Origin: an uncultured Gemmatimonadaceae bacterium
GTDB taxonomy: Bacteria; Gemmatimonadota; Gemmatimonadetes; Gemmatimonadales; Gemmatimonadaceae
NCBI GenBank assembly: GCA_963829055.1
Contig: CAWHHI010000016.1
Coordinates: 1,182,192-1,246,191, forward strand
DNA length: 64,000 nucleotides
Direction of reading: 5' to 3'
Position 1 is the stretch's first letter. Every line of letters begins with the position of its first letter. Under the pieces are notes generated by a model. That model did not search any database and was not told the DNA's origin. It saw nothing but the letters and a program-made list of their open reading frames with translations. A program made the translations under genes and the position numbers. This document shows, piece by piece, positions 13,961 to 56,440 of this stretch.

Positions 13961-16900
13961 CTACTGAACCGCTTTCGTCGCGCAGCTCAAGCCCGAGAAG
14001 AACGCCGGGTCGCCCAATCCAGCGGGGACGCTCATCTCCACCGGCACGCGCACCTGGCCGAATACCACCTCGTAAATCTTGGTCCCTGCCACCGGTCCGG
14101 GCTTGGCCTCGTTCCAGTACATCAGGAGCGGCGCCCATGTCCCGTTGTCGCGCGACGTCCCCGAACCGGAGCGAGAGAACTCGACGCCCGCCTCCTCCTT
14201 GAACCGCCACGTCGGCGTGACCGTGTGTTCTCCACCGCGCGCGAACTGAAACGTCTCGTCGCCGAACGTCATCGTCATGATCGGAACCGCCTCGGTCAGC
14301 TGCGGGCGCAGGCTGAACTGCAGGCGCGGCTCGGCGGCACCAGCCGGAAATAGTGCGTCCGTAATGCGACGCGAGTTGTTCATGAAGCGCAGCAGTTGAT
14401 CCGTGGGCACCGGCCCGCCCGGTATGGCGCGATAGTCGCTACCAGCGCGCGCGAGCACCTTGCCCTGCAGCGCCGCTTCGAAGAACTGGTTGATCTGTCC
14501 CGTCGGCTTGAACAGCTTCGTGAGCTCCGCGCCCGTGGCCCTCGCCTCGGCCTTCGCGAACGGAAATTTCTCGAGCACGTCGCGCGCTTCGGTGCAGAAC
14601 GCCGCGGCCGCGGCATTGATCGCGCTCACATCGCCTTCCTTTTTCTTCCCAACGATCTCGGTCGTGAGCAGCGACTGGATCAGCCGTTCGATGCGCTCGG
14701 CGGGCGTCAGAAAGAGCCGGCTCAGCGCGAGTTGGCGCTCGGGCTCTGTCGCGAACAGCCGCGACAATTTCCCGACCGAGCCTCGTACTGCGCCTGCCGC
14801 GGTGCTGGCGGCCTGCAGCGGACCCGAGGCGTCGGCTCCGGCTGGCACCGCGGCAACCTGGTGGAGGGCTGTCGCCAGGGCGCCGAGTTGGTCCATGTAG
14901 TCCTGGTTCGCGCCGCCGATGTAGGTGTCCTTGTTCTTGAGCGGCATCACGACGTCGACGGGCTGCAGCGGAACGCGGATGCCGACACTGTCAACGACCG
15001 CGTTCTCCGAAACCCTGAGGAGCATGCCGAGGAGTGGCGACGTCGGGCCGGCGAGCACGTCGAGCTTGCGGGCCGCATCATCCAGCGTGGCGAAGCCCAC
15101 GATGCTCGCCGAGCTCACGTAGCGTCGCCACGCGGCGACGTAGTCGTCCGTGTAGCGCTTCTTGAGATCGCGCGCGAGCTGATCTCGGTCGTTAGGCGGC
15201 TTCGCGACCCCGCCGGTCACCCAGGGCTCGCCCTGGAGGAACCGATCGAGGTCTTTCGTGAGCGCGGTATCGACGAGGTACGCCCAGGCTTCCTTCGTGA
15301 ACTGCGCGGGCACTTCCACGGGATTCACGACCACGCCGCCACCGGCGGAGCCGAGCCTCACGGGTTGACCGCGACGAGCGGCCTCGGTGACCATGGAGAT
15401 GTAGATCGGCGTGATGCCGACCGACTTCGCGAGCACGGCGCGCGCCGAGCCGATGAGCGAGGCGTCGCCCTTGTCCGTGTACGGATTGCCGTACGGCAGC
15501 TCGCTCCCGAAGAACTCGAACTGTCGGCGCGCGATCTCGCGAGCGGACGAGTCGACGCTGCTCGCCTGTGGCCACGCGCCGAGCAGTGCCGGCCCCACGA
15601 ACTCCGGCGTGCTGTGATCCGGTGCGTCGGTGGTGACGAGATAGGCGCGAAGCAGGCGATACGCGGAGTCGTACGGGACCGTCGCGTTAGGTGCGGACAA
15701 CGCCGTCGTGGCCCGTCGCAACCCGACCCGCGTCGAGTCGTACAGGAGCCGCGCGAAGCGATCGAAGTACAGCGCACGCGCGCGTGGATACATCCGATCG
15801 CCGGAGTACAGCCCCCACTGCAGCCAGAACGGCGGGCCATCGTGGACGTGACGACTCAGCACGTCGGCCTGCTCGCGAAGCGAATCGAGCCGCGCGAGCG
15901 CATCCGTCGGGGGAATCGCAATCGTCTCACGGGGGAGCGTCGAAGCGGATGCCGCCGCCGCACTGACGGCGCGTTGCAGCCGACGATTGCCGATGAACGA
16001 CGTCGTGAACGCGATCGCGAGCGCTGCCGCGAGTCCTACGCCCACGGCAGCAAGGGTTCGTCGTAACGCAGAAATGCGCGCGCCGCCGCGCGTCGCACCC
16101 ATCGCGAACGAGTCAGCGAGGACCACGTCCTGAATCAGCCCGGAGAGGAAAACCCATTCCGGCTTCTTGCGCCCACCACTGGCCGCGGGCTGCGGTGCCA
16201 TCGATGACGCGGCCGCGACCGGCCGAAAGACGCTCGTCGCGCCAGCCGGCTGCGCCTCACGCGCTGGCATGAGCGACGGAATCGCGGCTGCCCCATCAGC
16301 CGAGACAACGGCCCGTACGCCGGTGAGGTAGAACCCACGCAGCACCGGGCCGACACCCAGCTCCGTCGGGCGACAGAGCTCGACGAGGAACTGCACCGCG
16401 GCGGGGGCGAGCTTGCGCACCTCGCGCGGGAACTCGTACGCCGCGGGCTTCCGATCCCCAGCGCTCTCGCGCGCGAGCACCTCGATGCGCCGCGACGCCA
16501 TCCCGGAGAAGAGGCGCGACCACGCGTCCGTCAGGCGGCGACTCTCTCGCTCGGCGTAGCTCGCGCCGTCCGTTCGCGCCGAGAGCGGCAACGTCGCCCC
16601 CAGCACCACGCGTGTTTCATCGCGCGTGAAGTTCTGCACGTACTCGGCGAATCCGGGAACGCGATCGACCTTCGAGAACACCACGTACACCGGGAGGCGG
16701 ATCCCGAATTCCTGCGCGAGTTGCCCAAGCCGATCGCGAAGCGCGCGTGCGGCGGCGGCAGCCGCGTCGCCGGCGCCGCCGGCGGCAAGCCCTTCGCAGC
16801 TGTAGCACACGACCGCGACGCGCGGCGCCTGCTGTCCACTCGACAGCGCGCCCCGGACGCGCGCCGGACGCAGACGCCGCATGAACCAGCGCCACCGCGC

Positions 16901-17395
16901 CGGCTCGTCCGCGATGTCGCGGCCCGTCTCGACGAATAGGGTGCTGCGGCCGAACCAGAGGTTGACGCCGCGCGTCGCCAACACGGCATCGTCGCGGAAC
17001 ACATCGCCCGTGAGCAGCTCGACGTCCACGCCCGACCGCACGACCGATGACGTCTTCGTGCTGCCCGGTGGACCGAGCAGCAGCACGATCGGCAGCCTGC
17101 CTAACGCGCCAGACGGCGCGACCTTCGCCAGCGCGAGCTTCTTCTCCGCCGCGACGAGCGATTTCTGCACTTCGTCGACGACGCCGTCCTTGGGCTGCGG
17201 CGCCGGCGCCGGCTTGCGCAGCAGATAGATGAGCAGGACGGCGGCGACGAGCACGCCGAGCAGCGCCAGACCGCCTCGCAGAATCATCGCGTTGCGCCCT
17301 TGCAGCCCGAGTATGGTCGCCAGCCGCCACACGCCGAGGAGGTAGAGGGCGAGGCCGGCCACGACGATCGCCGACATTCCGAGCTTGCGCTTCAT
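13961..17395 (-). CDS. tssM: T6SS membrane complex subunit TssM (IcmF)
   Basis: Two N-terminal TMs, P-loop-like GPPGSTKT, LPVYVVFSKVD, LRGFYLTG, third TM, WGLYSG, FPF motif; adjacent to tssL. Confidence 0.9.
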   Translation of the reverse strand: MKRKLGMSAIVVAGLALYLLGVWRLATILGLQGRNAMILRGGLALLGVLVAAVLLIYLLRKPAPAPQPKDGVVDEVQKSLVAAEKKLALAKVAPSGALGRLPIVLLLGPPGSTKTSSVVRSGVDVELLTGDVFRDDAVLATRGVNLWFGRSTLFVETGRDIADEPARWRWFMRRLRPARVRGALSSGQQAPRVAVVCYSCEGLAAGGAGDAAAAAARALRDRLGQLAQEFGIRLPVYVVFSKVDRVPGFAEYVQNFTRDETRVVLGATLPLSARTDGASYAERESRRLTDAWSRLFSGMASRRIEVLARESAGDRKPAAYEFPREVRKLAPAAVQFLVELCRPTELGVGPVLRGFYLTGVRAVVSADGAAAIPSLMPAREAQPAGATSVFRPVAAASSMAPQPAASGGRKKPEWVFLSGLIQDVVLADSFAMGATRGGARISALRRTLAAVGVGLAAALAIAFTTSFIGNRRLQRAVSAAAASASTLPRETIAIPPTDALARLDSLREQADVLSRHVHDGPPFWLQWGLYSGDRMYPRARALYFDRFARLLYDSTRVGLRRATTALSAPNATVPYDSAYRLLRAYLVTTDAPDHSTPEFVGPALLGAWPQASSVDSSAREIARRQFEFFGSELPYGNPYTDKGDASLIGSARAVLAKSVGITPIYISMVTEAARRGQPVRLGSAGGGVVVNPVEVPAQFTKEAWAYLVDTALTKDLDRFLQGEPWVTGGVAKPPNDRDQLARDLKKRYTDDYVAAWRRYVSSASIVGFATLDDAARKLDVLAGPTSPLLGMLLRVSENAVVDSVGIRVPLQPVDVVMPLKNKDTYIGGANQDYMDQLGALATALHQVAAVPAGADASGPLQAASTAAGAVRGSVGKLSRLFATEPERQLALSRLFLTPAERIERLIQSLLTTEIVGKKKEGDVSAINAAAAAFCTEARDVLEKFPFAKAEARATGAELTKLFKPTGQINQFFEAALQGKVLARAGSDYRAIPGGPVPTDQLLRFMNNSRRITDALFPAGAAEPRLQFSLRPQLTEAVPIMTMTFGDETFQFARGGEHTVTPTWRFKEEAGVEFSRSGSGTSRDNGTWAPLLMYWNEAKPGPVAGTKIYEVVFGQVRVPVEMSVPAGLGDPAFFSGLSCATKAVQ

Positions 17396-17459: not shown

Positions 17460-18164
17460 TCACGCGATGGTTCCCCCGGAGCGCAACACGACGAAGTAGA
17501 TGATGTAGAGCGCGACAGCCACCGCGAGCGTTGCGGCACCGGCGAACACCAGACGCCGTAACCACGGGTCTCGCGTTCGCGGCAAGACTTCGCCAGTCGG
17601 GATCGCCCAATCGGGCGCGAGCGGCGGCGTACCACCGCGGATGCGGGTCACCTGTTCGCGAACACGCGACGTCCAGAGCCCGAGCTCATCGCGATTCGTC
17701 GCGCTATAGCGGCCCTGGAATCCGAGCAGGAGGCAGAGGAGATAGACCTCGAGCACATCCGCCAGATCCTGCGACGGGTCGCGTGTCATGAGTTGTTGCA
17801 GGTACTGAAAGAATGCTTCGCCACCGACGTGGCCACCGAACAGCTCATCCTGCAACGGCCGGCGAGGCCAGTCGCGGAACATCGGCTGCGCGGAATTCAG
17901 AATCGACTCGTCGATGAACGCGACGACGGCGTAGAGGACGTAGCGAACGTCGCCCTGCGCGTAGCCTGCCTGACGCGCGTCCTGATCGGCGGCGGCAATC
18001 AGCTGCTTGAGGTGCGTACGAAAGCTTTCGGCGTCGGTGGGTCCTTGCCGATTCGCGCGAAGACGAACGGTCGCCGTCAGCAACTCCTGCACGATCAGCG
18101 CGAGCTGCCCTGCTCGACTCGCCACAGGCGTCGGCACGGAATCGATCGCTGCGGGATGACTCAT
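17460..18164 (-). CDS. tssL: T6SS TssL (DotU family)
   Basis: YAVVAFIDESIL, W..RPLQDELFG..GGEAFF, EVYLLCLLLGFQGRY, C-terminal TM. Confidence 0.93.
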   Translation of the reverse strand: MSHPAAIDSVPTPVASRAGQLALIVQELLTATVRLRANRQGPTDAESFRTHLKQLIAAADQDARQAGYAQGDVRYVLYAVVAFIDESILNSAQPMFRDWPRRPLQDELFGGHVGGEAFFQYLQQLMTRDPSQDLADVLEVYLLCLLLGFQGRYSATNRDELGLWTSRVREQVTRIRGGTPPLAPDWAIPTGEVLPRTRDPWLRRLVFAGAATLAVAVALYIIYFVVLRSGGTIA

Positions 18165-18258
18165 GATTGGTCCGGGAAACGAAGCGGTAACTTGTCGCCG
18201 ACGGCAACGGGGCGCCATCCCTGGCGCGTGGCGATGGAGTGCACGACTGCGGCGTTCG

Positions 18259-19614
18259 TCAAGACTCCAGGACGATCAGCAGCTCGACCTCGGCGTCGGG
18301 GAACGAGTCGGGCACGTAGACGCCGATCTCGCCTGTGTCGGACAGATCGGTCCAGCACGGTCCGACTCGACCCAACGCGAAGTAGTGCGTGTCTGCGCGC
18401 GGAGAGATGGCGACAGGCGGAACAGCGACGTGCTCGACCGTCAGACCACTGCGCGCCCGACGCACCAACTCGACGGTGAAGCGCTTCGAGCAGACTTTCA
18501 CGAGTTGCGGTGCGCGACCGATGATCGTCGCGTCGGGCGCGCTCGAGCGAAGTGCGAGCAACCACCGCGCGCGCCCGAAGCATTGCCGGTCCGTGATGGT
18601 GCCGCTGAACAGGTAGTCGGCATCGCGTTTGAGCGGCACGCGCACACAGTTCGACGGAATGATGACGCCAAGGCTGCTGCGGATTCGCTGTTCCAGCACC
18701 GCGAAGCAGGTGCCGAGGTCGTCGTGATCGTATGACGGGAGATCGCGCGGGTGCGCGTCGAGTGCGAACGTGCAGAGCGATCCGGCGAGCCGAGAAAGAT
18801 CCGCGAACAGACGCTCGGGATGCGCATCGCGCGCGATCAGGTGATGTCGCAACGCGGCGACGTTCGCGTTCACCGTGTGCTGAATCCAGAACGTCGCCAC
18901 CTCGTGCGCGGCATACTCGGCGAACCCCTGGCCTGATGCTTGTCGCGCTCGGGACAGCTCGTCGCTCTTCGTATCGAGCATCTGCACGAGCCGAGCGAGC
19001 GTCGTCATCAGCGGTTCACTTGCCGCCAGATGCAGCGACGGTGGAATGAACGTCGGATCGTATGCGAACTTCCCGGCGCCATCGCGATGCACGCGCGCAA
19101 TTGGAAGCGCGATCTCATCCTCGCGGCGTTCGGAGTCGAGAATCAGACGAAAATTCTTGCGGCCCAGCTCGACGGCGTGATCGTCGCGTCCCGTGGTGTC
19201 ATCGCGCACCGATCGCGTCTCGAGCTGAAACCGCGGCCCGCCGCCATTGCCTGATCGCGGCTGATCGCAGTTCGCGCCATTCTGGACGAAGGGTGGAACC
19301 GCGAGCATCACGAGATGGCTGTCGTGCGTCGGCGAGAATACGTTTCGAATCTCGCGGGCGTCTGGAATCGGATCGGCATCGGGCATGTAGAACGCGAGGC
19401 CGTCGGGCATCACGCCCTGCGCGTGCACGAGCGAAACGACGCCATTCGCGATGGCGTGTGCGTCCAGCTCGAACGCCGTCACGCCGTAGGGCTTGTAGTA
19501 CAGCTGGCCGAGGGCGAAGCGAACGGAATCTTCGAAGTACCGACTCTGCGTCTGAAAATGGTGCTGCGCGAGGTGCATGCCCTCGTGCCATACTACCTTC
19601 GACAAAAGCGTCAT
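18259..19614 (-). CDS. tssK: T6SS baseplate TssK, paralog 2
   Basis: KVVWHEGMHLAQHHFQ, GVMPDG, FIPPSL, HPERLF, YDHDDL. Confidence 0.92.
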   Translation of the reverse strand: MTLLSKVVWHEGMHLAQHHFQTQSRYFEDSVRFALGQLYYKPYGVTAFELDAHAIANGVVSLVHAQGVMPDGLAFYMPDADPIPDAREIRNVFSPTHDSHLVMLAVPPFVQNGANCDQPRSGNGGGPRFQLETRSVRDDTTGRDDHAVELGRKNFRLILDSERREDEIALPIARVHRDGAGKFAYDPTFIPPSLHLAASEPLMTTLARLVQMLDTKSDELSRARQASGQGFAEYAAHEVATFWIQHTVNANVAALRHHLIARDAHPERLFADLSRLAGSLCTFALDAHPRDLPSYDHDDLGTCFAVLEQRIRSSLGVIIPSNCVRVPLKRDADYLFSGTITDRQCFGRARWLLALRSSAPDATIIGRAPQLVKVCSKRFTVELVRRARSGLTVEHVAVPPVAISPRADTHYFALGRVGPCWTDLSDTGEIGVYVPDSFPDAEVELLIVLES

Positions 19615-19774: not shown

Positions 19775-21553
19775 ATGACCGGCAACGAGTTCAACGCGGA
19801 ATACAAACTGGGACAGCGCATCGCGTCGAGTAGCGTCGAGAGTTATCTCGCGCACGTGACGGCCACGCGCCGACTCGTGATGGTGCACCGGATGGCCGGC
19901 GCGAACGATGGCGAGCGCCGACGCATCCGCGCGCTGCTCGATGCACTTCCGACGAGGAGCACGACCGTGCTCGCGCGGCTCGACGTCGATGGCGAGCCGG
20001 TAATCGTGACCGAGTTTCTCCCCGATTTCGTGAACCTGCGCGATTGGCTCGAGGCCGCGGTGGCGGTGCAGACGACGGTCGTCATCCGTACCGGACTGCC
20101 GACGCCTCCCCCGGCTGCGCCGCCTGCGGAGCCGGAGCCTCCGCAGGCGTCAGGTGGTAGTGATTTCACGCGGATCTTTGGCCAGCCTCTGTCTTCGGGT
20201 GCGCCCACTCCGCCAATCGCATCGCCCGCGTTCGTGGCGCGAGACGAGCCCGCCCCGCAGGGACCACCGGCAGCGCCGCCTGCACCTACCATCACGCCCG
20301 CCGCTCCTGCCGGCCCACGGAAACCGCCGCACCAGCGCCGGGGTCGGCGACCGAGAGCTTCACGGCGATCTTCGGTGCGGCTCCAGTACCGACGCCCCCG
20401 TCGGTCAGCGCCGCCCGCGCCGATTGTGCAGCCACCGGTTGTGCAGCCACCAGTTGCACAGCCACCGGTTCTACAACCGCAGGTTGCACAACCGCAGGCC
20501 GTCGCTCCAGAGCCAACGCCCGTAGCGCCACCTCAAGTACCAAAGCCGCCGGTGACAGCGCCGCCCGTGGCGGCGCAGCAGCCTGGGAACTTCACCGCGC
20601 TGTTCGGCGCGCCGGTCGCGCCTCCCGCGCCACCACTGGCGCCGCATGCATCCACGCCGACGCCCTCGGCGTCAACACCATCCGCGCCGCCACGGCCCGC
20701 GCCTGGCGGGGAGTTTACGCAGATGTTCGGAGCGGCGGCCGCATCATCGACCCCGCCGCCATCGTCGCAATCACCCGGTAGCGTCGCGCCACCCGGACCG
20801 CCGCTGGCTGCGTCGCCACCACCGTACGCACCGCCACCACAGGCGCATGCGCCGTCCCCGCCAGCTCCGCCGAGTCGCGCGCCCAACGCGAGCGACGCAA
20901 GCGTCCCCACGGATCCGGGAAAGATCCGGGTGATGTGGCGGCCGCGTGAAGGTGCCACCGGCCCGACCAGCGGTGAGGCTCCGCCTCCGAGCGCCACGAG
21001 CGCGTTGGCGCCGACACCGCCACGCGCGCCCGATCCCGGCCCCCCTCCGATGTTCGCGCCGCCTCCCGCACGCCCGACGACGCCGCCGTTCGCAGCACCG
21101 CAGGCGCCGGTCTATGGCGCGCCGCCACTCGCGCCGTCATCGGCATCGCCGGACTTTCCGACCGCACCACCATTCGCGGCGCCGCGTGGGGCGTCTCCAT
21201 TCGACGCACCGTCGATGTCTCCATCGCCGCGCGGCGACGCACAATCGCTCGGTCCTCCGGAGCTACGACTGTTCGCGAACGAGGCTGGAGAACGCGTCGA
21301 GCCTCACGCACCGCCGCCGGTGCCGTCGAGCGGACCGGCGCCACGCGCATCGGGGCCGAGTGACTTCACGCGAATGCTGACACCGGTCGAGGCGCTGCCG
21401 TCAGCCCCAGCGCCAGCGGCAGTGAAGCCAGCGCCGAAGGCAGAACCGGCCGCCGGCGGGCGACGACCGTCGATGCTGCCGCTCATCATCGTCATCATGT
21501 TCGCGTTCGTCTCGGCGGCCGCGCTGATCGTGTTCTTCGCGCTGCGAAAATAG
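19775..21553 (+). CDS. Pro-rich membrane-anchored protein with a kinase N-lobe-like head and FTxxFG repeats
   Basis: About 95-aa globular N-terminus, long Pro-rich region, C-terminal TM. A compensating frameshift pair near 20315-20415 hides ESFTAIFG. Confidence 0.75.
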   Translation: MTGNEFNAEYKLGQRIASSSVESYLAHVTATRRLVMVHRMAGANDGERRRIRALLDALPTRSTTVLARLDVDGEPVIVTEFLPDFVNLRDWLEAAVAVQTTVVIRTGLPTPPPAAPPAEPEPPQASGGSDFTRIFGQPLSSGAPTPPIASPAFVARDEPAPQGPPAAPPAPTITPAAPAGPRKPPHQRRGRRPRASRRSSVRLQYRRPRRSAPPAPIVQPPVVQPPVAQPPVLQPQVAQPQAVAPEPTPVAPPQVPKPPVTAPPVAAQQPGNFTALFGAPVAPPAPPLAPHASTPTPSASTPSAPPRPAPGGEFTQMFGAAAASSTPPPSSQSPGSVAPPGPPLAASPPPYAPPPQAHAPSPPAPPSRAPNASDASVPTDPGKIRVMWRPREGATGPTSGEAPPPSATSALAPTPPRAPDPGPPPMFAPPPARPTTPPFAAPQAPVYGAPPLAPSSASPDFPTAPPFAAPRGASPFDAPSMSPSPRGDAQSLGPPELRLFANEAGERVEPHAPPPVPSSGPAPRASGPSDFTRMLTPVEALPSAPAPAAVKPAPKAEPAAGGRRPSMLPLIIVIMFAFVSAAALIVFFALRK

Positions 21554-21584: not shown

Positions 21585-21639
21585 GATGAGAGCTGCCTGA
21601 CGATCATCGACCCTCGTCAGGCCACAAGACGCTCACGGA

Positions 21640-21666
21640 AGATCCCTCGCTACCGCTCGGGATGAC
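21640..21666 (-). repeat. REP-like element GTCATCCCGAGCGGTAGCGAGGGATCT
   Basis: Imperfect hairpin next to the tssK stop; related half-copy GTCATTCCGAGCGGAGCG at 58919-58936. Confidence 0.5.
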
Positions 21667-21671
21667 GCGCA

Positions 21672-23027
21672 TTAGGCGCGCGCCGGGAGCAGGATCACCA
21701 GTTCCAGCTGCGCGTTCGTCAGCTCGGATGGGACGTACGCCGCGAGATTTCGCGCGCGCGTGATCGCATCCCATTCGGGGCCCATCTTCGCCAGCTGGAA
21801 GTACTGGTAGTTCAGCTTCACCGGAATCGCGCTCGGCGGCGACGGCGTGTGCGTGAGCTCCACGCCGGACATTGCGTGCCGAATGAGATGCGTGATCCGA
21901 TCGCCCGACGAGACCTTCACCAATTGCGGTACGGCGCGAATGAGGTCCGCCACTTTCACCGCGCTGCTGACGGCGAGATAGAGCTGTGGCGCGGTGAGAA
22001 AGCGATCCTCGTCGAGCGCGACCGCGTGCACCAGCGGCTGCTCGCTCCGCAGCGGCAGCGCTACGAAGTTCGACGGCACCACCGTGTCGAGAAGATCGCG
22101 GAGCATCGCGTCGAGACGCGTGAAGCAGTCCGACAGATTCGCGTGGTCGTACGACGGAATCGAGCGCGGGTGCACGACCGTCGAGAACGTCGTGAGCGCA
22201 CCGGCAAGTGCCGTCATCGCCGCGAACAGCTCGGCCGGATGTCCGCGGCGCGTCTCGTAGAGATGCCGCACCGCCGGGAGATGCGTGTTCACCGTGTACA
22301 GCAACCAGAAGTTCGCGACGTCGCTGATGCCGAAATCGGCGAGACTCTGGTTTCGCTGACGCCGCATGCCTGACAGCGTCGTGCTCTTCGCGGCGAGTAG
22401 CTCGACGAGCCGCCGGTTGATCGTCATCAAGTACTCGTTCGCGGCGATGTCGAGCAGCGGCGGAACGAATCGCGGGTCGAGCGTCGTTTCGCCGGTCGGT
22501 CCGCGGACGACTCGCGCGACGGGAAGCGCCGAGCTGCCGTCGAGCGACTCGCCTTCCACGAGAAAGCGCAGATTCTTTCTCGCCACCTGCACAGGCTTCT
22601 CGGCCAACCCGTTGTTCTCGTCGCGCCGCATGAGCAGCTCGGCACGATAGCGCGTGCTCTGATCGCGCTGCAGTGAGCCGACGTTGAACCCATCGGGGCG
22701 ATACTCCGGCACCGTGAGATACACGTCGAGCGTCGGACGATCGGGATCCCACGCCTCATCGAGCGGCTTGGGTGGCGGTACCGCGTCCGACATCGGCGCC
22801 TCGAACAGCAGGCCGTCCGGCATGATGCCGCTCGCCGACGTCACGGCGAACGCGCCGCCCGCCAATGCTTCGCGGTCGATCTCGAGCTGATGAAATCCCC
22901 AGGGCCGAAACGCCAGCGCGCCCAGCCGAAAGCTGAGCAGGTCCTCCAGATAACGATCCTGCATCTGGAGATGCTGCGGGCTGAGGAGAACGCCTTTTGT
23001 CCAGAGCACCGGTTGGAGTTGCCGCAT
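21672..23027 (-). CDS. tssK: T6SS baseplate TssK, paralog 1
   Basis: PVLWTKGVLLSPQHLQ, PWGF, GIMPDG, FVPPLL, FWLLYTVN, YDHANL. Confidence 0.93.
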   Translation of the reverse strand: MRQLQPVLWTKGVLLSPQHLQMQDRYLEDLLSFRLGALAFRPWGFHQLEIDREALAGGAFAVTSASGIMPDGLLFEAPMSDAVPPPKPLDEAWDPDRPTLDVYLTVPEYRPDGFNVGSLQRDQSTRYRAELLMRRDENNGLAEKPVQVARKNLRFLVEGESLDGSSALPVARVVRGPTGETTLDPRFVPPLLDIAANEYLMTINRRLVELLAAKSTTLSGMRRQRNQSLADFGISDVANFWLLYTVNTHLPAVRHLYETRRGHPAELFAAMTALAGALTTFSTVVHPRSIPSYDHANLSDCFTRLDAMLRDLLDTVVPSNFVALPLRSEQPLVHAVALDEDRFLTAPQLYLAVSSAVKVADLIRAVPQLVKVSSGDRITHLIRHAMSGVELTHTPSPPSAIPVKLNYQYFQLAKMGPEWDAITRARNLAAYVPSELTNAQLELVILLPARA

Positions 23028-23121
23028 GGCCGGTAACGTAGCACCTTCGCTCGACCATAGCGATCACTACGACGCGTGTTGCGTCGCGGGTCGCCATCAA
23101 CCACCGGCAAGGAACGAAGCG

Positions 23122-24540
23122 ATGCGTGACCAGCGCGCCGAAGTCTCGTTGAACATTGCACCCGATGAGCGCTACGAATCCGCGGAGCTCGAGCCGCGGG
23201 CGTTCCGCATTCTCATCGTCGGCGACTTCAGCGCCCGCGGCGACGACGCCGCGACGGCCAACGACACACCGCGCCGCGTGGACCGCGACGATCTCGACGC
23301 GCATCTCGCGCGCATTGCACCGCGACTTCGCGTGACGTGGACGGGCAGCCACTCGACCTCGCGTTCACGTCGATGGAGGATTTCCTCCCCGATCGACTCG
23401 TGCAGCGCGTGTCGATGCTCTCGCGCAATGCCGAGAGCGCGGACGTCGATGCTCCAGTCGTGCGGCGGGCGGCGGATGTCGCGCAACGGCCGGTCGACCT
23501 CGGCCGAGCCGTGTCGGGCGGATCGCTGCTCGACGACATGCTCGACGATGTCCCCGGAGCACCTCGGCGAGCCGATGAGCTGTCGGCGTTCGTGGAGCGC
23601 GCGGTTGCGCCACATCTCGTGCGGCCGCCTGATTCCGAGACGGCCGCTCGCGATGCCGCAAAAGACCAGGCGACGACGCGCCTGCTTCGCGCCGCGCTCC
23701 ATCACCCGCGCGTCCAGGCGCTCGAGGCCTCGTGGCAATCCCTCGACTTTCTCGTGAGACGCCTCGACACCGACGGCGACCTCGCGCTCTTTCTGCTCGA
23801 CGCGCCACGCGCCGGCGTCGCCGCGGCGCTCGAACGACTCGCGCAGCATCGCGACGTGGCAGGCGGTGAGGAGTGGGCGCTGGTGGTGTCGCTGCACAGC
23901 GTCGCCGATGGAGACGAAGGGGCCGAGTGGCTCGCGCGCGTCGCGATGGCGGCGCGCGCGCTCGAGGCGCCGATCATTGCCGGTGCGCCCGCGAGCTTCG
24001 CGGGGCGCACCTCGGCGACCGCGCTCGACGATGACAGCGCGCCGAGCGCGGAACCGGAAGTGTTCACACTCATCCGTCGTTCGCTCGAAGCACGGTTCCT
24101 CGGCCTAACGTTTCCGCGACGTGCTGCTGCGCGTGCCGTACGGCGGCGAGAATCCGTGCGAGACGATCGCGTTCGAGGAGATCGAGGATCCGGAGCGACA
24201 CGACGACTACCTGTGGGGGAGCGGCGCTGTTCTCGTCGCGCTGCTGGTCGGTGAGGCGTTCAACGCGCGCGGCTGGGCGATCGGCCCGCGGATGCCGCTC
24301 GACGTCGGGTCGCTCCCGCTGTTCACGTATCGCCGCGGACCCGAGACCGTGGCCACGCCGTGTGCGGAGACGCTCATGTCCGAGCGCGTCGCGCGGCATC
24401 TGTTGTCTCGCGGGCTCATGCCGCTCGCGTGGATCAAGAACACCGATCGGGTGCGGCTCGTCGAGCTGCGATCCGTCGCCGAGCCAACGGCGCCGCTCGC
24501 GGCCGCATGGGCGGGCACATCGTCGAGGAGCAACGCATGA
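23122..24540 (+). CDS. TssB-TssC fusion (sheath-like accessory protein), frameshifts near 23335 and 24120
   Basis: TssB-like ILIVGDFS..VDRDDLD..FTSMEDFLPD, followed by TssC-like HHPRVQALEASW, LLRVPYG, YLWGSGA, GLMPL. Confidence 0.8.
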
Positions 24541-26072
24541 GCGCAGGCGTGATCAAGCTCGCCTTCGTCCGAGGCGCCGGTGCCGACGCCGAGTCCGCTC
24601 CGCCTCGAGCCCGCGTCGGCGTTCGAGACCGATCCGTCGCTTCCTGCGTGACGCCGCGTTCGAGGAGCACGAGCTCTGTCGTCGACTGGAGGTCGAATCG
24701 CTGAACCGATTCCGCGCGCTCCGCCATGGCCGGCCGGCGACACCGCTCGGCGACGCGACTGACGCGCTCATCCGGCTTGTTCCTGGACAACGAGCCGATG
24801 TCATGGTCCGACGCGCGGCACATGGATTCCCGCGGCGCCGCTCGATGCCATGCACTCGTTAGGCCTGCTGCGTGACCATCGGTCCGATCCGAGCCAGCGT
24901 GGTCATCGAATGTCCTGCTCTACCCGACGGAGTCGCTGTTCATGGCGTCCGATGTCGCCGCGCTGCCCGAGGGTGGCGAGGCAGAGTGGTGGGATCTCGT
25001 CTACGCGGCGATCACGTCCAACACCCGAACGTTCATGTCGACGATCCCGCGGTCGCGCTGCGCGGCGTTTCTCGAGCTCTGCGCGGGGACAGGCGTGGCT
25101 GCGCTGGCGGCCGGCGCGACGTTCGCCGATCGGGCGTGGGCGATCGATGTCACCAGATCGGTCGACCGAGTTCGCGCGGTTCAACGCGCGGCTCAACGCG
25201 CTCGATACCGTGACCGCGATGTGCGGGGATCTGTATGCGCCGGTCGCCGGCATGACGTTCGACCGGATCGTCGCGCACCCACCGTACGTCCCGTCCCGCC
25301 AGACGACGCTCGTGTACCGGGATGGCGGCACGGATGGTGAGGACGTGACGCGCCGGATCATCGCCGGCTTGCCCGACCACCTCCGCCCGGGCGGCTCGTT
25401 CTACTGTACGTGCACGGCGACCGACCGCACCGACGCGCCGCTCGAACACCGGCTGCGCACGATGCTCGGGCGAGCGTGGCGACGAGTTCGACATCGCTGT
25501 GGTCGTCACCAACGACTTCAATCCGACGCAGTATTACGTCGGCCGGGCGGTCGCTGGTCGCGACACCTGGCAGGAAGCGGAAGCCTGGCACAAGCACTTC
25601 GCGGCGCTCGACGTGACGAAGATGGTGTACGCCACCGTCGCGATCGTGCGTCACGAGCACGCGCACGAGCCGTACACCGTGCGCCGGCGGGCGGGATCAC
25701 GGACGTGCGGGACGGAAGTCGCCGCTCTGCTCTCTGCCGCCGAGATCGTCCGCGACTGCCGGGCGCGCTCGAGCGGCTGCTCGACAGTCGGCCGGTGCTG
25801 CCGACGCACGTCGCCCTCGAGTCGACGCACGTCCGCGAGGGCAGCGGGTGGGCTGTGCGGACGGCCATGGTCTCGAGCACGGTACCGTTCGACGTTCGTC
25901 TTCCGTGTCCGCCGGAGATGATCACGTTCTCGCGCGGATGGACGGCACGCGAACGGTCCGCGAGCTGTATGCGGATCTCTCGGCCGCCGACTCGCTCGCC
26001 GAGGGTGCATCGATCGACCGACTCGCGTCGTACATCCACATGCTGGCGTCGCACGGTTTCGTGGAGTTGTAA
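24537..26072 (+). CDS. HemK/PrmC-like SAM-dependent methyltransferase with a C-terminal PqqD-like winged helix (several frameshifts)
   Basis: FLELCAGTGVAAL, FDRIVAHPPYVP, YRDGG.DGE, LRPGG; C-terminal LARMDGTRTVREL...LASHGFVE. Confidence 0.75.
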
Positions 26073-47233: not shown

Positions 47234-50200
47234 ATGACGCCAACCTCCACTTCCACGTGTCCGACCTGCGGCGGGGCCGTACTTCCAGGCGACCGGTTCT
47301 GCGGTAGCTGCGGTAGTCCCGTCGCGGTTAGCGCGTCCGCGCCAGCTTCGTCCAACCAGGTCCCGCCAGCACTCGACACGGTCGACCTGCCCGTCGGGGA
47401 CACGTCGCCTGGGGCGCCGTGGCAGCTCGGCTCCAGTCGGCAACGCTCGGGGAATTCGAGATCCTGACGGAGCTCGGCCGCGGAGGGATGGCTGCGGTCT
47501 ACCTCGCACGCGACCTGGCGCTCAATCGGCGCGTCGCGATCAAGGTCATGGCACCCGGTCTGATGCTCGGCCAAGGTATGGTCGAGCGGTTCCGGCAGGA
47601 AGCAATCACCGTCGCGAACCTGCAGCACGCGCACATCGTCTCGATTTACGCGGTTCGCGCGCTCGACGATCTGCACTTCTTCGTCATGCAGTTCGTCCCC
47701 GGCCGCACGCTCGAAGGCGTGCTTCGGGAAGGCAGCCCGCTGCCGATCCCCGTCATCCGCGCCTGGCTCTATCAGATCGGCGCCGCCCTTGGGTACGCAC
47801 ATCGCCGCGGCGTGATCCATCGAGACGTCAAGCCGGGCAACATCCTGCTCAACGCCGACGGCGAGGCGATCGTCACCGACTTCGGCATCGCGAAGGTGGC
47901 CGAGACACCCAGTCACACGCAGACGGGTACGGTCGTCGGCACTCCGGTGTACATGAGTCCCGAGCAGTGCTTCGCCAAGGAGCTCACCGGCGCGAGCGAC
48001 CAGTATTCGCTCGGGATCGTGGCGTACGAGATGCTCGCTGGACGCCCGCCGTTCTCCGGATCGAGCTTCGCCCTCATGCGCGCGCATACGGATGACCCCC
48101 CGCCGTCCCTGCGCGCCGTACGCCCAGACGTCCCGCCGTCGATGGAGGCGGCCGTCGAACGCATGCTGGCGAAGAAGCCGCAGGATCGGTTCGCGACACT
48201 CGCCGAAGCGCTCGTCTCGTTAGGCGCCGGTCCGGTCTCACCGGATGACCCGTTGCACCTGACGCTGCAGCAGCTCGCCGCAGCGAGTGAGCGGCTCGAA
48301 CAGCTCGGCGGGCTGATTCGAACGCCAGCCAGCCCAATCCCGAAGACGCGCGAGCGTCCGAAGCCCCCGGCCCCGATTACGCCGCAGACCCCGGTCCCGT
48401 CGACGCCGTCGCTCGTCGTCGCGATGGAACCGCCGCCGTCGGACCTCGAGCCGGGCGCCACGACAACCCTGCGCGCCGCGGTGAAGGACGCCACCAGCGG
48501 GGAGCCGGTCCCCAGCGCCGAAGTCCACTGGACGAGCAGCGCCGTTTCCGTTGTCGAGGTCGATGCCGGAACCGGACTCCTCCGAGCAGTCGCGCCAGGG
48601 AGCGCCGTCATCACCGCGACAAGCGGCGTTGCGCGAGACGCCGTAGACGTTGTCGTCGCGGAGCCGAAGCCGGCACACATCGAAATCTCGATCCCGCCGG
48701 GTGCGTGGCACGTCGGCGATGACGTTGTCGTAACGGCGGTCGTGACGAGCCGCTTCGGTATTCGTGTCGCCCGTCCGATCGAATGGTCCGTCGAAGACGC
48801 GTCCGTTGTCGTCATCGGGGGGAGCGCTTCGAGCGCGGTGGGTGCATCCGTGACTCTTCACGGGCGAGCGGGTGGGACAACGGGCATCGTCGCAACGTGT
48901 GGTGGTGCTGTTGCCCGCGTGAACGTGCGCGTCGTTCCAGCAATCGTCACGGAGACGCCGATCGCCCCGACCGCAGGTGAAGACCAGGCGCGATCGAGGC
49001 CGCCCGCTCCGAGCGCCACTGTCGTACTGCCGCCGATGCCCGTAGCGATTCCGGCGTCGACGCCGATCGCACCCGAACCGCCGTCACGGCTGTCATTGCC
49101 ACCCGAGGCGCGCCGTGAGAAGCTGGTACACACGCCGGTGGACACGCGGGCAAATAAGGCGGCGGTATCAGCGGGCGACGTCGCAGGCAACGCGGAGCCA
49201 TCCCGCGCGGGAACATGGCGCTGGGTCGCGGCGGCAGTCGCGGTCGTTGGAGCGATCGGCTACCTCGCGTCGCGGCCGTCCACATCCACGCCGTTGAAGG
49301 CCGATTCGGCGGTGGCGCAAGCACCCGATTCGCTGACGGCTCCATCCATCGACACGACAGCGCGCGTCGCGACCAGCCCACCCGCGTCGGGGGCGAGCAC
49401 TTCGGCCACGAGCCCCGAGTCCACAACTACGCCCGCAGCGACGGAATCGTCGTCAGTCCGCACACCGGTGGCGCCCACGCCGCGTCGCATCGACGTTCGA
49501 CCGTCGATCCCCAAGCCCATCACGCCTGGGCAAACACTGACGCTGGCGGCGAGCGTTCGCGACTCGGCAGGTGAGCCAATGTCGCGCGCGCGCGTTACGT
49601 GGTCCAGCAGCGATTCACGCATGGCGGTCGTCGATCCCACGCGCGGGATCGTACGAGGGGTGAGCGCCGGGACAGCGCGCATTACGGCGCACGTCGGCGA
49701 CGTCGTGTCGACAATCACCGTCGCAGTCAGTGCTCCCGCAGTGGACGCCACGGCCGTTGCTGGCGTCGATGTCTCCGATGTGCGCCCGATGACGGTCGGC
49801 GAAACGACGCGATTGACGGCCATCGTACGCAACGCGCTGGGCGCCACGGTGAGCGGTACCGACATCCAGTGGAGCTCGTCGAATGCCGATATCGCGGCCG
49901 TTGCGCCTAACGGCTTGGTGACGGCGCGCGCACCGGGCGTCGCGACAATCCGTGCGTCCGCCGGAGGTCGCACTGGCGATCGTGCTGTGACCGTCCGTGC
50001 AAAAGAGGTGGTGGTCCGTCCAGACACGCCATCAACGCCTCCACCAAACGCGGGTGCGCCCGCCCCCGCGAAGAGCGAGGCGGAGCTGCGCGCCGAGGTC
50101 CAGACCGTACTCATGACGTTCGTGCGAGCGATCGAAGCGAAGGATACGACACTCATCCGTCGTGTATTCCCGACGGCCAGCAGCGTGGTGATGACGCGAT

Positions 50201-50427
50201 GGCAAACCACGTTCAACGACGCTCGTGGTCCTATCCGCCTCGCCGGCGACGCGGCGCAGATCACCGACACCCCGCGCGACGCGGCTGGCGCGCAGGTGCA
50301 CGCGCGCGCGAACTACTCAGCCCGTTTTTCTTCGCGATCGGGACGTGCAGACGTGACCTTTCCCGTTCCCATCATCGCGGTCCTCCAGCGTGACGGCGGG
50401 ACGTGGCGCATCGTGAGCATGCAGTAG
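47234..50427 (+). CDS. Membrane Ser/Thr kinase: Zn ribbon, kinase, Ig-like (Big_2) x2, TM, Big_2 x2, NTF2-like C-terminus (frameshift near 47425)
   Basis: CPTC..CGSC, LGRGGMA, HRDVKPGN, DFG, WTSS/WSSS Big_2 motifs, WVAAAVAVVGAIGYL TM, LQRDGGTWRIVS. Confidence 0.9.
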
Positions 50428-54060: not shown

Positions 54061-56440
54061 GTGACTTTGCCGCCTCTCGAATCCCCCACCGTTCCCGCTG
54101 CGCATTGCACGAGATGCGGGGCACCAGTCTTTTCGGGCGATCGATTCTGCGGTGGCTGCGGCTACAGTCTTACGGTGTGCGCGACCTGCGGCCGCACCGT
54201 GATGCCAGGCGCCGACTCCTGTACGGCGTGCGGCGCTTCCCTCGCGCCGGCGCCGCCGGCTGGTGATCCTGCCGCGCCATCAGCGGGCCCGGCGAGCGAA
54301 GGCGACCCGACCTGGGGGCCCGTCGTCGAGCGGCTTCGCGCTGCGTTCGCGAACGAATTCGAATTCGACGGCGAGCTCGGACGCGGCGGCATGGCTGCCG
54401 TCTTCCGCGCACGCGAGCTCGCGCTGAATCGACGCGTCGCGATCAAGGTCATGGCGCCCGGCCTCCTGCTCGGTGAAGGCATGGTCGATCGATTCCGGCA
54501 GGAAGCAATCACCGTCGCGAACCTCCAGCACTCGAACATCGTCGCCATTCATGGCGTGCGCACGCTCGGCGACCTGCACTTGTTCATCATGCAGTACATC
54601 CCCGGTCGCTCGCTCGATCGGGTGCTGCGCGATCGAGGCACGGTCTCCCTGGAAGCCGCGCGCGTGATCATGTATCACGTCGGGTCCGCGCTCGACTACG
54701 CGCATCGTCGCGGCGTCATCCACCGCGACATCAAGCCTGGCAACATCCTGCTCGACGGCGACGGCGATCCCGTCGTAACGGACTTCGGTATCGCGAAGGT
54801 GGCGGAGACGCCGGGCTACACGCGCGTGGGAACCGTCGTTGGAACGCCGACGTACATGAGCCCCGAGCAGTGCATGGGCTACGACGTCGGCCCCGCCAGC
54901 GATCAGTATGCGCTCGGCATCGTCGCGTTCGAGATGCTGACTGGCAGTCCACCGTTCGGCGGAACCGGCATGGCGATCATGCGCGCGCATACGGACCAGG
55001 CGCCGCCCTCGCTACGAGCAGCGCGCCCGGACATTCCGGAGTCCGTCGACGCCGCGATCGCACGCATGCTCGCGAAGAAGGCGGAAGATCGCTTCCCCGA
55101 TCTGGCGGCCGCGATTCTCGCGCTCGACGCGCACCCACTCAGTGCGCTCGGACCCGTGCGCGCCGAGATGTCGGCGCTGGCCGGCGCCGCGAGCGCCGAG
55201 ACGAACCTCGCTGAAATCGTTAGGGCGCCGCGCAGTCCCGCGCCGCAGAGCCAGACGCCGTTGCCGCCGCCGTCAGGCGACCGCGCAAAGACGATGCGCC
55301 CGGGCGTGGCCGCCATCCGCGTGGACCAGCCGCCTGACGCCGTCGAAGTCGGAGACTGCATCGTGCTGTCCGCGGTGCCGCGCTCGGACACTGGCGGTCG
55401 CGTCGATGGCGCGCGTCTCGTGTGGCGATCGTCGAACGACCTCGTTGCTACCGTCGACTCCGCGGGCGTGCTGACGGCGAATGCACCAGGTTCCGCGACC
55501 GTGACGGTTTCCGCTGGCGACGCTCGCGCTAGCGTCGACGTCGTCGTCGTGGCGCCGAGCGTCGCGACGATCGAGGTCGAGGTACCGACCGAGGTCCGAT
55601 CCGGGACGCGCGCGACGCTCGCCGCCCGCGCGCTCGATCGCCATGGCAAGCCGGTCGACGTTCCCGTGACGTGGAAGTCGCGCAATCCCGCCGTGGCTGC
55701 GGTAACCGATACGGGTGCGTTGTCGGCGCGGCGCCGCGGTACCGCCGTCGTCGTGGCTGAGGTCGCGGGTCTCGCGCGCGCGGTGACGATCACGATCACG
55801 TCCCCCCCGGTGGTCGACGTCGTCGTCGATGGCGTACCGCCGGCACTCGTCGTCGGAGCCACAGCGACGCTGCGCGGCATCGTGCGTACGGCGCGCGCGG
55901 CGGATGACGATCAGGTCCGCGCCGTCGAGTGGAAGTCGAGCGATCCCGCGGTCGCGACCGTATCGAGTGACGGCGTGCTGACCGCGCGCGCGAGCGGCCA
56001 GGCAACCATCACCGCGACTGTGCGAAGGCATTCGCGGGGCCGCTACGGTCACGGTGGTGAGTGTTCGCGCCGCAACGGTGGTCATCGCCGCTCCGCCCTC
56101 ACCACTTCGCCTCGGCGATCGCGTCATGCTCAAGGCGACGGTCTATGACGCGAGCGGGAATGTCGTGTCACGCCCGATAACGTGGCGCTCCACCGATCCG
56201 CGGGTCGCACCGATCGATCAGTCCGGCCAGCTCGTGGCGCAGAACGAAGGCTGGGCGATCGTCACGGCGCAGTCCGACGGCGTCGACGCGCACACCGAAG
56301 TGCTCGTTAGGCAGCAGGTCATCCCGATCTCCGCGAGTGGGCGGCGGGAGTCGCGACGTCTCGCGCTCCACTGGTGGGTGCTGCTCGCGGTCATCGCCGG
56401 CGCGATCGCCCTCGGCTGGAAGCTGCTGCTGCGCCGCTGA
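54061..56440 (+). CDS. Ser/Thr kinase paralog: double Zn ribbon, kinase, Big_2 x4, C-terminal TM (frameshift near 56020)
   Basis: CTRC..CGGC..CATC..CTAC, HRDIKPGN, DFG, WRSS/WKS Big_2 motifs, WWVLLAVIAGAIALGW. Confidence 0.9.

Follow-up and report, generated by a model that had tools for sequence, protein, structure and literature searches.

Motif-array proteins with a predicted kinase N-lobe, encoded between two tssK genes in a type VI secretion locus of Gemmatimonadota

What can half of a kinase contribute to a type VI secretion system (T6SS)? That question is raised by a gene on the forward strand (19775..21553) of the window, the whole 64,000-nucleotide stretch of an uncultured Gemmatimonadaceae genome analyzed here (contig CAWHHI010000016.1). 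With a tssK gene on either side, it belongs to a full T6SS locus and encodes a protein of 592 amino acids as assembled (about 589 in truth) that combines a putative half-kinase head, an array of short motifs, and a tail anchor; we call it the motif-array protein. Head-to-head with it is tssK1 (18259..19614), which encodes a divergent TssK paralog and is the first of the reverse-strand genes tssK1-tssL-tssM (tssL, or DotU, at 17460..18218; the IcmF-related tssM at 13961..17395); tail-to-tail with it is tssK2 (21672..23027, reverse strand), encoding the canonical TssK paralog. A short intergenic repeat at approximately 21615-21670 is REP-like and has 159 blastn matches in the genome.

The predicted head (19775..20068, forward strand) is followed by motifs SDFTRIFG (20159..20182), ESFTAIFG (20353..20376), GNFTALFG (20585..20608), and GEFTQMFG (20708..20731), the last of these being nearest to the family consensus, and by a terminal motif, SDFTRML (21359..21379), all on the forward strand. 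Four of the five are in the frame of the ORF; ESFTAIFG is in another frame. A six-frame scan for [DESN]FTxx[FLM] gave seven matches in the window, five of them inside this gene, which is also the sole Pro-rich ORF with several copies genome-wide. Hydropathy identifies a single C-terminal hydrophobic helix (residues 570-588, 21482..21538, forward strand; KD 3.04, with the runner-up segment at 0.95), followed by LRK and the stop. The preliminary description of this DNA had reported the ORF, the five motifs, a His at the catalytic Lys position, and a C-terminal transmembrane (TM) helix, and each of these is found where it placed them. The disordered tail also contains a strand-like stretch, KIRVMWRP (20921-20944). 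Similar (V/I)(R/H)W stretches recur in some orthologs and a DY(L/R)xxL stretch in 20 of 102; a (V/I)xWR strand motif noticed by eye was set aside, as the pattern matched only three of 102 proteins. A few 151-base contigs cover the gene in four RNA runs, where DNA carry-over is possible.

The second motif had been described as hidden between two compensating frameshifts. Protein P0001 (ENA, 589 amino acids), which is 99% identical to the motif-array protein over the first 115 residues and 93% overall, has an uninterrupted frame with ESFTAIFG in it. At the first indel (20305..20312), the contigs listed for three of four short-read assemblies (X1-X3) carry a net +1 change (one additional base or the loss of eight), and the fourth has no cover there; at the second, compensating indel (20404..20407), a single base is missing at 20407 in one X2 contig, and an X6 contig of low depth has two 2-base gaps there. 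The tssC, tssF, clpV, and methyltransferase genes of the window are likewise frameshifted relative to intact orthologs, which marks this assembly as indel-noisy. The frameshifts in the motif-array gene are assembly errors and not biology, and the second motif is genuine, out of frame in the window assembly only.

An AlphaFold2 model of residues 1-98, built from a 44-sequence alignment, has the form of a kinase N-lobe with hinge and helix D (pLDDT 90.5); its elements run helix, three strands, helix, two strands, helix (αA, β1-β3, αC, β4-β5, αD). All 48 Foldseek matches listed are kinase entries, with E values of 1.1e-3 to 3.8e-3, and none of the matches listed reaches E≤0.001. Wherever the title identifies the chain, the 50 VIA-align matches listed (Z 9.8-7.8; rmsd 2.4-3.9, with 78-94 residues aligned) have a kinase fold, PknB (Z 8.8) and PpkA (Z 8.0) among them; 6qx9_K and 8iyj_X6 are large complexes in which the title does not name the chain. 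ESM Atlas kinase clusters match the head at 0.89, which we treat as a lead. The assignment to the kinase fold comes from the predicted model, and sequence-only searches gave no kinase signal: Pfam and NCBIfam have no match for the motif-array protein, PDB sequence searches with the head returned only chance or repeat matches, and hhalign of the head against four local kinase N-lobes gave a probability of 15% (E 0.0017). The N-lobe fold proposed at first reading is thus present in the model, with kinases as its top fold matches.

Of the Hanks-type kinase hallmarks, the head appears to have the N-lobe fold (five strands plus helix C) but lacks the Gly loop, the β3 Lys, and the C-lobe. None of 201 aligned heads has a GxGxxG loop or the β3 catalytic Lys, and the head cannot be a kinase. 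His stands at the β3 Lys position in 100% of 154 and 88% of 42 heads, and His38 (the residue at that position), Thr79, and Trp91 are 88-100% conserved in both groups. Helix D is followed by a Pro-rich linker, no C-lobe with HRD and DFG being present; four of the 154 homologs have an isolated DFG or HxD word, all within the linker. The substitution of His for Lys and the missing C-lobe agree with what had been noticed before. Split-kinase organization was considered and rejected, as the flanks of the 51 motif-scan loci listed contain no kinase match. Judging from its conserved positions, the head is under selection, and the family is evidence that a kinase N-lobe can survive on its own as a conserved domain. 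The literature searched, in which subscription sources are thinly covered, yielded no bacterial precedent for such a domain or for the motif-array family; the available part of PMC12599244 mentions an N-lobe once and Gemmatimonad not at all.

The family is real and conserved and, as far as the literature was searched, undescribed. A profile of the head finds one copy each in 41 of 401 genomes of the phylum, with no internal stop in any of the 41 N-domain matches; in a wider search it matches 1037 clusters at 50% identity, 481 of them at E≤1e-10, the best 150 of the 1037 having been inspected. Three false matches (G047, L008, and L009) were dropped, and two unpublished genomes (G216 and G013) count only in the denominators of 401 and in the figure of 173 given below. 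Members include one labeled Gemmatimonas sp. and one on plasmid NZ_CP007129.1 of Gemmatirosa kalamazoonensis, which identify the phylum as Gemmatimonadota. Among the 154 homologs, 102 are complete to the anchor, and these contain 416 matches to [FY]Txx[FLMIV], where shuffling gives a mean of 10 (maximum 22 in 200 shuffles); the repeated motifs of the preliminary description are thus conserved in orthologs. Each protein has a median of four copies (range 0-7, with none in two proteins), and one metagenome locus, L188, has up to 15. The internal consensus is PGEFT(R/Q)(L/M)F, with the Phe positions conserved at 98% and 95%; when the Thr position was left free in the search, it was filled by Thr 251 times, Ser six times, and Gly twice. 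Spacing and linker vary freely, the disordered linker being 200-700 residues long in the homologs and the tail after the anchor a median of six residues. The last motif forms a separate class, GPS(E/D)(F/Y)TR(I/V)(I/L), a median of 40 residues before the anchor.

A motif-only scan of metagenome DNA, which makes no use of the head, recovered at least 123 loci. Among the matches listed, 49 of 57 ORFs closed at the 5′ end have the N-lobe and eight do not (two of the eight are the same protein and one is a short fragment). In one N-lobe-less ORF (L066:39-1679, reverse strand), on a 4.7-kb contig with no T6SS gene, a TIR_2 domain (E 2.6e-21) replaces the N-lobe. Granulicella tundricola (Acidobacteriota) has an ortholog at the same position, in the company of two tssK genes (WP_013572716.1, ACIX9_RS27465, annotated as a hypothetical protein), in which repeated PGSFTQ(M/L)F, the terminal motif, and the anchor are present and the N-lobe is missing. 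Since the N-lobe is absent from Granulicella and from the eight motif-scan ORFs, the motif array and anchor are the core of the protein and the N-lobe is optional. We infer that the lower-GC metagenome group belongs to Acidobacteriota.

The tie to tssK extends beyond the window. Among the matches listed, 51 motif-scan loci have flanks of at least 2 kb: tssK is found in 38 of them, a T6SS gene in 40, and none in 11, so the motif also recurs near tssK elsewhere. Within the phylum, 50 of 401 genomes have a TssK match, 40 with two or more and 10 with one (five of these 10 being weak partial matches); the motif-array gene is present in all 40 of the former and none of the latter. This co-occurrence is a pattern and not a test, and it is overstated, because the genomes are related and clustered genes are inherited together. 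The gene adjoins tssK in 39 of the 40 genomes and lies between two tssK genes in 32; of the other eight, six lie at the end of a contig, one has tssK2 at a distance of 30 kb, and one (G030) has the gene away from its own T6SS, beside a kinase/CsgG cluster. A further genome (G156) has the motif-array gene and no TssK match, and at two metagenome loci (L116 and L128) the gene is beside tssL with no tssK within 12 kb.

TssK1 and TssK2 are stable paralogs, approximately 37% identical. TssK2 shares the RRQxNxxLADF neck motif with solved TssK, whereas in TssK1 it is lost and the head shows invariant residues of its own (D342, W351, and C375); the two might each serve a different foot of TssG or combine into mixed trimers. 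No TssJ was detected in any of six genomes (the window genome, 86% complete, and five near-complete ones), nor is one annotated in the 37-kb Granulicella stretch, and no Fha/TagH match exceeded the cut-off in five of five genomes. The absence of Fha is not special, because subtype i4b systems are generally without it, according to the available part of 10.1101/2023.12.21.572528; PMC9113992, likewise available in part, places plasmid systems of Acidobacteria and Gemmatimonadetes in one i4b clade. Two further features of this region are an additional, strongly diverged tssB/tssC-like pair located between tssK2 and the main tssBC (23026-24444, forward strand), seen also at L013 and in G055, and a class I SAM methyltransferase gene (approximately 24825-26069, forward strand) with an HPPY motif and HemK/PrmC-like matches below cut-off. 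The methyltransferase recurs near tssK2 or tssB at L010, L061, L067, L092, and L128, in both groups, and is not in the Granulicella stretch.

Kinases and phosphatases are found near some family members. A membrane kinase gene follows tssM in four genomes (G018, G112, G201, and G282) and is found next to the displaced copies in G030 and G156, and a PP2C gene follows tssM in Granulicella and at L128; at L049 (G156), the family member has as neighbors genes for a membrane kinase, for a PP2C, and for an FHA-GAF-cyclase protein. A dedicated partner kinase was considered and is not supported: 173 of the 401 genomes encode the neighboring kinase family, whose representative in the window genome is encoded far from the T6SS, and none of the 51 motif-scan loci listed with at least 2 kb of flank has a kinase match. 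Apart from an FHA-trypsin gene in G282, the mapped loci contain no FHA reader gene. The window itself encodes, after its VgrG/PAAR region, two Hanks kinases with Ig-like (Big_2) repeats (47419-50427 and 54061-56148), neither of them orthologous to the kinase that is linked to tssM elsewhere. A Thr with a hydrophobic +3 residue fits the preferences of mycobacterial Hanks kinases and FHA domains, in the portion of PMC3138270 available. Further literature, also available in part, is PMC13389060, PMC12607579, PMC8339232, PMC6333020, and PMC6888350.

Our analysis demonstrates the architecture and its conservation, the loss of catalysis, and a genomic tie both to tssK1-tssL-tssM and to tssK2. We favor, by somewhat better than an even chance, a multivalent, tail-anchored scaffold that brings subunits of the baseplate and the membrane complex together in the manner of Fha and is probably toggled by phosphorylation of Thr. 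The C-terminal helix would anchor the protein, with all else predicted to be cytoplasmic. Each PGEFT(R/Q)(L/M)F copy may fold into a short helix whose Phe-x-x-hydrophobic-Phe face would bind a repeated site; TssK (with the divergent TssK1 as first choice) or TssL/TssM would be the most plausible carrier of that site, and the distinct last motif, some 40 residues from the membrane, may bind a membrane-proximal partner. Avidity, possibly with condensate formation, would then concentrate the baseplate at the membrane complex, which is Fha's job elsewhere. A Hanks kinase and a PP2C phosphatase might toggle the motif Thr, although this invariant residue could instead be a binding or helix-capping residue. 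The N-lobe would be what remains of a receptor kinase after loss of its C-lobe and sensor, retained as an optional interaction module that perhaps recruits a kinase back-to-back. The preliminary description had already proposed a membrane-tethered scaffold in the T6SS, which the motifs, anchor, and T6SS tie support; it had missed the dispensability of the N-lobe and the separate class of the last motif. A bolder and distinctly speculative version is that Gemmatimonadota and Acidobacteriota assemble a T6SS by a pathway of their own, without TssJ or Fha: a receptor kinase would have been reduced to a lone N-lobe, the mirror of KIND, on a membrane-anchored, phospho-switchable FTxxF string that docks on a neo-functionalized second TssK and nucleates the machine from inside, the N-lobe both recruiting and allosterically controlling the switching kinase.

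The protein might instead be a signaling part and not a tether, its N-lobe turning an active Hanks kinase on or off by back-to-back pairing and its motifs serving as a multisite substrate or decoy that sets a firing threshold. The available part of PMC13434768 describes activation of bacterial kinases through such N-lobe dimers, which the L33D/D76A changes break, and the head fold matches PknB and PpkA, as noted above. In the column aligned to the acidic D76 position, E or D is found in approximately 77% and 88% of the two groups of heads; acidic column 67 is paired with R or K at column 9 in 148 of 201 heads, and the charges are swapped in five of the 10 heads with an acid at column 9. This charge pair may, however, be intramolecular; the displaced copies adjoin kinases, but no kinase is tightly linked, and pairing cannot explain the members (Granulicella and the eight of 57 motif-scan ORFs listed, one with TIR) that keep motifs and anchor without an N-lobe. 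A model of the head with the first motif, which is unstructured there (pLDDT 57-59), neither supports self-docking nor counts against it. We regard the signaling role as unlikely, if worth keeping in mind. Rather less probable is that the motifs are self-stickers or lipid-dipping micro-helices, such that a membrane patch or condensate would mark the assembly site without a folded receptor. The sticker-and-spacer layout and free copy number fit this, and condensates of the Fha disordered region are insensitive to point changes in the part of 10.1101/2023.12.21.572528 available, but the seven-residue pattern is near-invariant in two phyla, with Thr not swapped for Ser, which is tighter than generic stickers need. 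Moreover, the protein already has a TM anchor, and its motif is neutral and shorter than membrane-targeting helices typically are.

The remaining readings concern the partner and the gene itself. The motifs might bring in a different multimeric component of the T6SS (such as the ClpV hexamer, TssA, or effector chaperones) in place of TssK, TssL, or TssM: their hydrophobic-x-x-hydrophobic-hydrophobic spacing resembles the N-terminal helix of TssC (LLDQII in the window), which binds ClpV. YukC recruits substrates in type VIIb secretion (10.1101/2020.05.09.085852, available in part), which also speaks for such a role; the gene is linked, however, to tssK, tssL, and tssM and not to clpV or tssA, nothing points to TssA in particular, and we consider this improbable. 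That the gene is a decaying kinase pseudogene carried in the cluster is scarcely credible: the missing catalytic residues and the frameshifts would fit, but the latter are assembly errors, all 41 N-domain matches are free of internal stops, and 481 clusters keep the His, Thr, and Trp invariant. The scaffold reading thus stands as our preferred one. The gene marks an uncharacterized T6SS architecture (two TssK paralogs, no TssJ or Fha detected) in two phyla that are abundant in soil, and its short, mutable motif offers a handle on how the baseplate joins the membrane complex there; with family members in two named isolates, Granulicella tundricola and Gemmatirosa kalamazoonensis, this is directly testable.

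The motif-array protein belongs to none of the kinase, EssB/YukC, and Fha families, though it resembles each. With Hanks-type receptor kinases (PknB and PpkA), its likely ancestors, it shares the predicted N-lobe fold and the order of kinase, Pro-rich linker, and TM helix, but not their Gly loop, β3 Lys, C-lobe, or sensor domain. KIND domains (Spire and very-KIND; PMC3415841, available in part) likewise use one kinase lobe alone as an interaction module; theirs is a eukaryotic C-lobe, of which the bacterial N-lobe here is the mirror case. EssB/YukC (10.1101/2020.05.09.085852, in the same part) has a dead kinase fold, a single TM helix, a place in a secretion locus, and the role of a non-catalytic hub. 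By hydropathy a single TM helix would also follow a cytoplasmic dead-kinase head in our protein; EssB/YukC, however, is a full pseudokinase with an extracellular domain in type VIIb secretion, whereas the motif-array protein has only the N-lobe and belongs to a T6SS. The closest parallel is Fha/TagH with PpkA-PppA (Acidovorax citrulli, Vibrio cholerae, and Pseudomonas aeruginosa). In the available part of 10.1101/2023.12.21.572528, Fha has a folded head, a long disordered region, and a C-terminal membrane attachment, is encoded with the T6SS, recruits TssL, TssM, and TssK, and is linked to Thr phosphoregulation, a link that our protein would share. Fha attaches by an amphipathic helix and the motif-array protein by a TM helix; the latter has no FHA domain or TIGR03354 match, has discrete repeated FTxxF motifs, and occurs where Fha and TssJ were not found. 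The likeness proposed here is in how the two would work.
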